Part shown: positions 53,961 through 56,865 of the stretch, in pieces
Layout: each line of letters starts with the position of its first letter
Numbering within the stretch: the stretch's first letter is position 1
NCBI GenBank assembly: GCA_951406725.2
Contig: OX597814.1
Span: 96,038,001-96,102,000 of the forward strand
Direction of reading: 5' to 3'
DNA: 64,000 nucleotides
Source: Octopus vulgaris
Taxonomy: Eukaryota
Notes under the pieces: generated by a model
What the model was told of the DNA's origin: nothing
The model's database searches: none
The model's input: only the letters and a program-made list of their open reading frames with translations
Program-made: the position numbers and the translations under genes

Positions 53961-54135
53961 GCATTTTCCTTTTTTCTGTCTGTCTCTGTTTTACTCTAGC
54001 GAGAGCATGGTAGCAGGTAGTAGTAGTCTTAATATTTGATATAGAACTTGTGTTCATTTGGCAAAAAAATAAAAATAAAAATAAAATGACCGTCCCAAAA
54101 TACAACAATATCTGTTACAACATACGATTTCACGC

Positions 54136-54200
<65 letters not shown>

Positions 54201-54324
54201 TGTTACGTTTATCAATTTGTTTTGCAAGATTCCTTATGTGAAATCGTGTGTTGAAACATATATTGTTGTATTTCGGGACGGTCATTTTATTTATTATCTA
54301 TTTCTTTTGCCAAATAAACACGCG

Positions 54325-54415
<91 letters not shown>

Positions 54416-54416
<1 letters not shown>

Positions 54417-54571
54417 GCGTAGGAGTGGCTGTGTGGTAAGTAGCTTGTTTACCAACCACATGATTCCGGGTTCAGTCCCACTGCGTGGCATCTTGGGCAA
54501 GTGTCTTCTACTATAGCCTCGGGCCGACCAAAGCCTTGTGAGTGGATTTGGTAGACGGAAACTGAAAGAAG

Positions 54572-54626
<55 letters not shown>

Positions 54627-54833
54627 TTGTGTGTTTGTCCCCCTAGCATTGCTTGACAACCGATGCTGGTGTAATTATGTCCCCGTTACTTAGCGGTTCG
54701 GCAAAAGAGACCCATAGAATAAGTACTGGGCTTACAAAGAATAAGTCCCGGGGTCGAGTTGCTCGATTAAAGGCGGTGCTCCAGCATGGCCGCAGTCAAA
54801 TGACTGAAACAAGTAAAAGAGTAAAAAAAGAGA
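54416..54833 (+). mobile_element. SINE family A, full length, inserted in the (TA)n of the foldback element
   Basis: GGCGTAGGAGTGGCTGTGTGG through AAGTAAAAGAG. Confidence 0.92.
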
Positions 54834-54888
54834 ATATATTTCTTCACTCGTTTATTACTGTTATTTTATTATTTCAACGGCTGTCCAT

Positions 54889-54934
54889 TGTCCGGAAATC
54901 TTTCGTCACACATCTTGTGACCTCTTCAGTGACA
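54889..54934 (-). ncRNA. Candidate minimal hammerhead ribozyme
   Basis: Minus strand TGTCA-CTGAAGA-G-GTCACA-AGATG-TGTGAC-GAAA-GATTT-C-CGGACA. Confidence 0.55.
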
Positions 54935-55224
54935 CTTTCCGTTTCTGTGTGTGTGTTCTTGCTCCACTTACTCCATTCTGTTCTTCTAAGATGTGTATCC
55001 TTATGTGCGCATGCGCATGCGATGGCAACATCGTGGACGAACACACATATACAGGGGAATACAAGAACTATACCATTTCTTCTCGGGTCTTAGGACAACA
55101 GCGGCACAATGGGGTGAGAGGCTGGTGCTGAGAGAAAGGCCACACTGCTGCTAAAACTAAGACACACACACAAGCGTCCACTACATGCACACACACTCGC
55201 GCACACACACATCATAAATATATA

Positions 55225-55438
55225 TTTCTTTATTGCCCACAAGGGGCTAAACATAGAGGGGACAAACAAGGACAGACAAACGGATTAAGTCGATTACATC
55301 GACTCCAGTGTGTAATTGGTACTTAATTTATCGACCCCGAAAGGATGAGAGGCAAAGTCGACCTCGGCGGAATTTGAACTCAAAACGAAATACTGCTGAG
55401 CATTTCGCCCGGTGCGTTAACGTGTCTGCCAGCTCGCC
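55225..55438 (-). mobile_element. SINE family B variant with a different tail
   Basis: Family B head and core; flanked by CACATCATAAATATATA at 55208-55224 and 55438-55454. Confidence 0.88.
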
Positions 55439-55874
55439 ACATCATAAATATATAAATAAACGAATATATAGATATATCTGCCACATACATGTGATAAATG
55501 TAAGACAGAAATTGATAATATAAATAAATAAGATTATAGAAAGAGCATGGAGACATACGAAGCGAACCCATGCACACACACAAACACACACACACAAACA
55601 CACACACACATGAAACCTCATGGATGTCATATGATGTCAACAGCAGAACTAACATGGTCAGCAGCAGCGGCGGTGCCGACGAAGGCAACAACAACAACAA
55701 CAACAACAACAACCACGATGGCAACACCGTGGACGAGCACACATACACGGGAATACAAGAACTGTACCCTTTTTTTCGGGTCTTAGGACAACAGCAGCTC
55801 AATGGGGTGAGAGGTTGGTGCTGAAGGGAAGGCCACACTGCTGCTAAAATCTAAGACACATACAAACACACACG

Positions 55875-55943
<69 letters not shown>

Positions 55944-56040
55944 ACAAAACAAGGACACAGACGCATGCGCACATAAGGATACAAATTTTAGAAGAACAGA
56001 ATGGAGTAAATGGAGCAAGAACACACACGAAAACGAAAAG

Positions 56041-56086
56041 TGTCGCTGAAGAGGTCACAAGATGTGTGACGAAAGATTTCCGGACA
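56041..56086 (+). ncRNA. Candidate minimal hammerhead ribozyme
   Basis: TGTCG-CTGAAGA-G-GTCACA-AGATG-TGTGAC-GAAA-GATTT-C-CGGACA: intact core, 6-bp stem II, bulged stem I. Confidence 0.6.
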
Positions 56087-56865
56087 ATGGACAGGCGTTA
56101 AAATAATAAAATTACAGTAATAAACGAGTGAAGAAAAAAAGAGATATATAGTGCGTGTGTTTATTTGGCAAAAAAAAAAATGACCATCCCGAAATTCATC
56201 AATATTATTGGATACTCTCTCTCTCTTTTACTCTTTTACTCTTTTACTCTTTTAATCATTTTCAGTCGATCATTTCAAAACTTTGTATAATTTAAGTGAT
56301 AATTACTCATTTATATTTGGCAAATGTAAATTTTATCATGCGCAACAATCTCAATACTACTTGCTCCTGTCAAGAATTTATTACATTAGCCATGGACGTG
56401 AAAATCTTGTAAAATTCTTCTCAACATTGGTTCCATGTCTGTATGGTTTTGCAGTACAAATTAACTTCTAATTAATCGTATAGTCCTAGTTACTGTCCTT
56501 GAAAGAGCAGATTAATTTACTAAGTATCGTTTAGAACCATTTATTTTTGTGCTTACATGAACTAAAATGATTTGCCAGTTTCCTCTTGAAAATTAATGAT
56601 ATTTCACCAATGTAAAGGAATTCTCTATCCTCAGATGTAGCTATACATCTATATATTACATTTATAGTTTTACACTTATTTTCCACATAACAGGATTCTC
56701 CTTTAGAACAATTGCAAAGATAGCCTTTTATATTTCCATCAGTTTTAGTTTCAGTTTGATCATTGATTATAGAATTAAATTCATTTCCACCAAGTTCTCC
56801 ATTACTATTTACTCATTTACTCCTTTAGATAATATCTTTGTATCTTTGTTCTATTTCTAGCTGAA

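Follow-up and report, generated by a model that had tools for sequence, protein, structure and literature searches.

A probable PLE insertion with two head-to-head, hammerhead-bearing ends of unequal length in Octopus vulgaris

Two head-to-head copies of a high-copy repeat end, each carrying a minimal hammerhead motif and terminating in unequal tips, are present in a stretch of 64,000 nucleotides of Octopus vulgaris DNA (hereafter the window), which is AT-rich and rich in microsatellites. The locus is very probably one insertion made by the reverse transcriptase-endonuclease of a Penelope-like element (PLE) and later broken by two SINE-like repeats. Support for the PLE origin proposed in the original prediction comes from the minimal type I hammerhead, from the head-to-head arrangement of the arms, from the presence of a tail at just one end at two independent loci, from a 12-bp TSD flanking an older copy and from a palindrome where the inverted copies are joined.

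Organisation of the locus and of an older fold-back

Inverted arms of about 180 bp around a direct repeat of about 145 bp, as originally described, are present: 165 of 175 aligned bases are identical between the arms (54839-55015 and 55962-56136) and 132 of 144 between the copies of the direct repeat. The arms and the features bordering them are as follows.

54039-54133, + strand: third, short element end with ATG at 54086 and 16 matching codons, without hammerhead; 83-85% to the left arm
54203-54259, - strand: tail, 57 bp, on the left arm only; the equivalent long end is at 6643
54260-54334, - strand: left (inverted) arm, distal part, with ATG at 54285
54415-54838, + strand: SINE-like insertion beside a (TA)n run, splitting the left arm; four long copies elsewhere in the window, 87-91%
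54839-55015, - strand: left (inverted) arm, proximal part; 165 of 175 bases equal to the right arm
55008-55021: perfect palindrome of 14 bp at the inversion junction
55225-55437: second SINE-like insertion, inside the interior, with a 17-bp TSD (55208-55224 / 55438-55454)
55962-56205, + strand: right arm, comprising leader, hammerhead, A-tract and ATG at 56180; stops 26 bases into the frame, without tail

At the locus, a copy of the 3' end that is truncated on its 5' side is joined in inverted orientation, head-to-head. The left arm is longer than had been assumed: it runs on the - strand from 55015 down to 54839 and resumes, past the SINE-like repeat and the (TA)n run, at 54334-54203, extending 57 bases past the point at which the right arm stops (56205). 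The SINE-like repeat at 54415-54838 was inserted after the left arm had formed. The short end at 54039-54133 is probably a separate insertion that faces the tail of the left arm across a (CA)n run. No clear TSD was found at the main locus, where just a 6-mer is obtained if the short end is counted in.

An older fold-back with mutated cores and a related end, placed originally at 6655-7079 and 38430-38500, were both recovered with the following limits.

6643-7080: older copy of the family in fold-back form; the tail is on the left arm and missing from the right one; mutations in both cores
38428-38510, - strand: end of a related family, with a 28-codon frame at 69% amino-acid identity; long end alike

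The older fold-back has no interior and is bordered by a 12-bp TSD (6630-6641 / 7078-7089); none of 5000 pairs of random 50-base windows used as a control had a 12-mer in common. It combines a short right end with a long left end as at the main locus, and a one-sided tail of 57 bp is found at two independent loci.

Terminal frame and positions of the ends

All the ends carry an ATG-led frame of up to 28 codons, the ATG being preceded by an A-rich tract; the peptide of the left-arm frame is MTVPKYNNICFNTRFHIRNLAKQIDKRN. The earlier statement that no ORF is present thus holds for a reverse transcriptase (RT) or endonuclease, as judged by Pfam and tblastn, and fails for this terminal frame. Counted in bases from the ATG, the short ends of both fold-backs lie at +26 and the long ends near +83. 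The 28-codon frame is kept between the two families (main locus and 38428-38510), and six codon differences of the end at 38510 from the left-arm frame are synonymous (counted by hand).

A profile built from the end peptides matched one protein among 64 candidates and 13 short ones among 1.84 billion representatives. In all 14 matched proteins the similarity is confined to codons 1-26, beyond which they are mutually divergent, and none of them reaches an RT. Named protein matches obtained for the window are from Octopus bimaculoides and O. sinensis. Ten of the 13 representative matches were looked up, and all ten proved to be unnamed gene calls, the contigs being 0.9-1.7 kb long. The most likely reading of the 14 proteins is that gene calls have run by chance through independent copies sharing one end point. 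P0001 (UniRef A0A0L8I3J7), an Octopus bimaculoides gene model, begins with the frame of the repeat and continues into unrelated sequence; it is likely to be a chimeric prediction, because its sole longer relative has the downstream part and lacks the frame. Its assignment to a DNA transposon, based on a resemblance of motifs, was dropped.

By position and by analogy, the frame is likely to be the start of an ORF. When it was compared with the N-termini of 23 long PLE-like proteins, all from a single clade, no similarity emerged, and 68 of 100 shuffles scored equally. In each DNA run, 79-104 contigs depart from the reference at 56195 with mixed continuations. The short end at 54039-54133 stops at codon 16 and the matches P0009 and P0014 also cease at codon 17; these stops may represent a third stopping point or chance frameshifts.

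The hammerhead motif

The whole 64-kb window was scanned for CTGANGA and GAAA separated by a Watson-Crick stem (4 bp or longer), with one additional base allowed between CTGANGA and the stem. Exact cores (CTGAAGA, 6-bp stem II and GAAA) were found twice only, at 56046-56074 (+) and 54929-54901 (-), against a mean of 0.01 and never two in 200 block-wise dinucleotide shuffles; being copies of each other, the two matches count as one event for statistics.

56041-56086, + strand: right hammerhead; core 56046-56052, extra G 56053, stem II 56054-59/56065-70, GAAA 56071-74
right hammerhead, continued, + strand: AGATTT at 56074-79 as stem III; a short stem I or one with a bulge; cleavage predicted after C56080
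54889-54934, - strand: left hammerhead; core letters intact, A-C mismatch at the closing pair of stem I, predicted cut after 54895

The motif has the pattern of the PLE minimal hammerheads (CUGANGA, extra nucleotide, G10.1-C11.1, GAAA, UH), with an extra G between A9 and stem II in both copies. Both motifs had been described as intact, which is correct for the core letters and incorrect for the closing pair of stem I on the left, which is A-C. No hammerhead family of Rfam was found in the window at E<=1; the 119 Rfam matches obtained are all under the gathering score and mostly represent microsatellites and hairpins. JGI metagenome contigs scanned with the core pattern yielded no locus.

The family in public contigs

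Words of the right arm occur, among the matches listed, in 20 runs from 12 studies with 6 organism labels, and 4 of the 24 listed runs were aligned to the locus at 80% likeness. Three large runs contributed 6,316, 7,522 and 4,688 aligned contigs, some of them lying on the SINE-like tail past 56209. In run X1 the summed depth is 25,000-31,000 over the leader, compared with 70,000-113,000 in the surroundings of the core and 37-56 for single pieces; since summed depth is itself no copy number, these values are read only as hundreds to a few thousand copies of the family. The summed depth declines steadily towards the 5' side, which matches the expectation for 5' truncation, with a contribution from edge effects. 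Strand switches were seen at 8 of the 15 joints among those listed (there being 109 further ones), at varied places and at about single-copy depth.

No position of the 30 in the core and stems II-III is variable (substitution at least 8%) in any run, as compared to 31 of 140 in the flanks (Fisher p 0.002), or 25 of 140 after removal of six positions at which the copy in the window is the exception (p 0.009), the positions in these tests not being independent. The non-core stretches 55989-56005 and 56083-56093 are likewise without variants, and the contrast is thus not unique to the core. The better preservation of the core (0 of 30 against 25 of 140), which had been proposed as a check, supports, at the level of sequence, selection on the ribozyme. 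The suggestion that stem III had decayed from AGATCT finds no support: no variant reaches 8% at 56075-56080 in any of the four runs, and AGATTT is the family form. In addition, each large run has 79-97 contigs in which the hammerhead, from 56042 onwards, is preceded by another purine-rich leader, which suggests a second subfamily with a common ribozyme.

These data also bear on a quite different origin, namely a MITE or fold-back DNA transposon in whose inverted termini a hammerhead-like word occurs by chance. The long inverted arms, the lack of coding capacity and the TSD at the older locus are in keeping with such an element, and the single named protein match, P0001, runs on into sequence of unknown origin. 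However, that match has the appearance of a chimeric gene model, the conservation of the core exceeds that of the flanks, the 5' ends are variable with strand-change joints at varied places, and the ends differ by 57 bp at two loci in place of symmetric TIRs with fixed boundaries. The outcome that would have refuted the original prediction was not obtained, the ends being asymmetric, unlike TIRs, and the core better conserved than its surroundings. A MITE is excluded because of the unequal ends and the variable 5' joints, and we consider it the merest outside chance.

The interior and the nature of the element

55020-55166, + strand: direct repeat, copy 1; internal non-coding duplication, without hammerhead
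55716-55860, + strand: direct repeat, copy 2

The copies of the direct repeat (132 of 144 positions identical) are its only two occurrences in the window and have a period of about 470 bp once the SINE-like insert is removed. The repeat has nothing in common with the arms, 90 of 300 shuffles being as good, and contains no core words. It had been interpreted as the tandem copy of a PLE, that is, a partial copy forming a direct pLTR, and this interpretation has to be abandoned as the repeat is unrelated to the arms and devoid of core words; it is an internal duplication. The possibility that the spacer or the direct repeat is a decayed arm was likewise ruled out (229 and 90 of 300 shuffles as good, respectively).

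A retrozyme, i.e. a tandem non-coding repeat that produces circular RNA and whose unit would be the direct repeat, was considered in view of the period of about 470 bp, and retrozymes are thought to use PLE enzymes (PMC7229834). The direct repeat, however, has no hammerhead, the two hammerheads lie on opposite strands so that one transcript cannot release a monomer, and the motif is of the minimal PLE type, as against the canonical type reported for retrozymes in PMC7229834. The absence of head-to-tail hammerheads excludes this origin, which we rate as very improbable.

The locus being very probably a PLE insertion, the source of its interior remains to be considered. The interior amounts to about 715 bp (55016-55961, not counting the SINE-like insert with one copy of its TSD) and has no Pfam family and no PLE match by tblastn. 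For the RT and endonuclease, no Pfam family was found in the four long frames scanned, and tblastn with 78 PLE-like proteins of one PLE clade gave no match inside 54039-56205. An autonomous PLE sharing the terminal repeat, anticipated in the original prediction, was not found by profile searches or with the 78 PLE-like proteins and the 23 N-termini.

Two variants of the PLE reading differ in what they make of this. The element may be a dedicated non-autonomous PLE with a body formed by the non-coding interior of about 715 bp and its internal duplication, a proposition on which we are evenly divided. It accords with an interior lacking a Pfam family or a PLE tblastn match and with the failure of the profile searches to find an RT-linked partner, and the direct repeat (132 of 144), being as diverged as the arms (165 of 175) or more so, may have come with the template. 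It is weakened by the interior occurring nowhere else in the window and by its absence from the older fold-back. Alternatively, and somewhat less probably in our estimate, the interior is either a long 3' region, rich in microsatellites, from an autonomous PLE that has been truncated on its 5' side, or host DNA captured beside the terminal repeat. For rotifer PLEs, PMC3846280 describes unique spacers, 0.9-1.5 kb in length, that precede the 3' pLTR, and also host DNA enclosed by pLTRs; genomic minimal hammerheads are mostly single copies in truncated PLEs according to PMC4209133; and another PLE remnant in the window is followed by more than 300 bases of TG-rich sequence. Against this variant, no autonomous relative was found in the searches given above. 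The label "non-autonomous" is therefore plausible for the family and not established, because a 5'-truncated autonomous copy or captured host DNA would fit equally.

Proposed mechanism of insertion

The steps given here, including the enzyme, the priming sites, the role of the frame as an ORF start and the cleavage, are inferred largely by analogy to the anole PAc and the rotifer Pen2. The enzyme would nick AT-rich DNA, and cDNA synthesis would start at either of two internal sites of the RNA, located some 26 and some 83 bases beyond the ATG. One copy, started at the near site, would proceed for about 960 bases through the terminal repeat and the non-coding body (the later SINE-like insert excluded), giving the right arm and the interior. 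The other copy would start at the far site, include the 57-base tail, halt after roughly 310 bases and be joined in inverted orientation at the palindrome. The hammerhead would act in the RNA of the source element as a weak, dimer- or protein-dependent ribozyme and is probably idle at the locus.

Predicted folding and activity of the hammerhead

In a helix III dimer all six positions are able to pair, two of them as G-U (AGAUUU); the computed energy of this duplex is 0.0 kcal/mol against -5.0 for AGAUCU, while a competing GAAA/UUUC pairing that uses the core reaches -4.0. Stem I may form with 3 bp, or else with a single pair followed by a bulge and four further pairs. Its closing pair (1.1-2.1) is G-C in the right copy and the family majority and A-C in the left copy, and the register beyond it is irregular. 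Position 56082 is variable (G/A) in 19-34% of the depth, which is tolerated by the bulged stem I but is also a CpG site. In folds of the whole arm the pairing probability of stem I is at most 0.01, and the right motif with its flanks folds no better than shuffles (z 0.34). In a transcript spanning both arms both motifs are predicted to be buried in one long duplex, and such a transcript has just one sense motif. Loss of the stem I closing pair was the negative control of the assay in PMC4209133, in which PLE minimal hammerheads cut poorly and as dimers; the hammerhead of PAc cut only with the protein of the element (PMC11167929). Considering the folding results together with this poor or protein-dependent cutting, self-cleavage is predicted to be plausible in the source element and unlikely at this locus.

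A possible additional pairing was noticed in the left arm, where the leader contains a 9-mer that is the exact complement of loop II together with the first bases of the 3' strand of stem II. One of 1000 shuffles was as good in this post hoc test. The match is lost at two positions in the right arm, where 92-99% of the depth has the left-arm letter, and the last four bases of loop II have no variant at 8%. Against the pairing stand the long linker and the ability of the 9-mer to form a small hairpin of its own; there is no compensatory change in hand, and an old inverted duplication would yield an equal match. It may be speculated, with little confidence, that the hammerhead is not minimal and that loop II is paired by a segment of the leader, ACACATCTT (left arm and majority of public contigs), situated some 55 bases 5' of stem I. 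The pairing would take the form of a long-range pseudoknot or of a switch opening stem II, and would compensate for, or gate, a ribozyme in which the wobble of stem III and the irregular stem I are fixed throughout the family. In combination with the 57-base tail, it would set apart a separate lineage of cephalopod PLEs, possibly now spreading without a protein of its own. Such pairing, if true, would offer a testable reason for the poor cutting of PLE hammerheads in short constructs. A literature search found no paper joining PLE hammerheads with a loop II pseudoknot. Lunse et al. (RNA Biol) reportedly dealt with PLE hammerhead variants and may already cover forms with a paired loop II.

Other features in the window

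Further PLE remnants were observed in the window. A different PLE family at 33012-35075 forms a fold-back with a minimal hammerhead (-) at 33098, whose stem II is imperfect, and a decayed partner near 33455; its broken RT (33960-34600) and GIY-YIG-type (34731-35057) frames match PLE-like proteins of about 700 aa. A third decayed coding remnant lies at 37100-37834 (-) and 37982-38152, in which 171 bp of the C-terminal region are duplicated at 98.8% identity, the duplication looking far younger than the surrounding decay. A decayed PLE endonuclease region is present at 56423-56800 (-), 220 bp to the right of the main locus. It was rejected as a part of the element: it lies tail to tail with the right arm, its decay is much further advanced, a SINE-like tail cuts it off, and it has no DNA in common with the element.

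The palindromes at 5647-5947 (301 bp, 86%) and 12122-12204 (83 bp, 99%) carry no hammerhead core words and are probably MITE-like. C-terminal exons of an ABCB/P-glycoprotein-type transporter extend from 9667 to about 32200 (+), the main locus being situated about 22 kb downstream of the last exon found and the older fold-back just 5' of the first. A perfect tandem duplication of 109 bp at 9058-9275 is either a recent event or an assembly artefact.

Comparison with known systems

A search of the literature, as distinct from repeat libraries, found no published description of the family or of an octopus PLE hammerhead. The locus resembles Pen2/Pen2a of the rotifer Adineta vaga (PMC3846280; scheme in PMC8557442) in its head-to-head inverted end and its tail on one side only, as well as in ends that fall within the first codons of an ATG-led frame, in the junction palindrome, of a kind described there for rotifer PLEs, and in a TSD of about 10 bp, here at the older locus (PMC3846280). 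The pLTR of Pen2a includes 12 codons, or 22 with the tail, and its TSD is 9 bp (PMC3846280). Unlike in Pen2/Pen2a, the arms at the main locus enclose no RT or endonuclease remnant, a direct pLTR on the 5' side and a clear TSD are both absent, and the tail measures 57 bp as compared to 31 bp there (PMC3846280) and to the 30-40 bp published for PLEs.

The motif shares with the minimal hammerheads of metazoan PLEs (Oikopleura, Marsupenaeus, Drosophila virilis; PMC4209133) the type I order, the CUGAAGA core, the extra nucleotide between 9 and 10.1, the G10.1-C11.1 pair, the 6-bp stem II, a self-complementary helix III of 6 nt and UC before the predicted cut. It differs from those described there in the family-wide G-U wobble of helix III (AGAUUU), in the extra G, in a stem I of 3 bp or bulged 5 bp, and in a purine-rich leader where the published consensus is U-rich. 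The Oikopleura motif has the layout GAAA-G-AU-CU-U, i.e. AGAUCU at helix III, and an extra G is found in 1 of the 56 motifs listed, that of Nasonia, the consensus being not-G (PMC4209133).

PAc, a Poseidon element of Anolis carolinensis, likewise has two end points within the start of a frame and AT-rich junctions; its tail equals the distance between two internal priming sites, and its hammerhead is dispensable for insertion in vitro (PMC11167929). The ORF of PAc, however, begins at stem II and priming occurs 111-118 bases in (PMC11167929), whereas here the ATG is situated about 100 bases downstream of the predicted cut, the ends are at +26 and +83, and no protein was found for the element. 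With the metazoan non-LTR retrozymes described in PMC7229834 the family shares its non-coding, hammerhead-bearing and high-copy nature; unlike them, it has no head-to-tail hammerhead repeats, a minimal ribozyme, an ATG-led frame and a tail.

Penelope elements are abundant in the animal group of the host (PMC8967140), and the present analysis adds one high-copy PLE family to a group already rich in them. The insertion is real and largely ordinary for a PLE, with a long tail, a wobble stem III, an irregular stem I and a leader 9-mer as mildly unusual traits, and its two recurrent ends provide natural read-outs of where reverse transcription probably starts.
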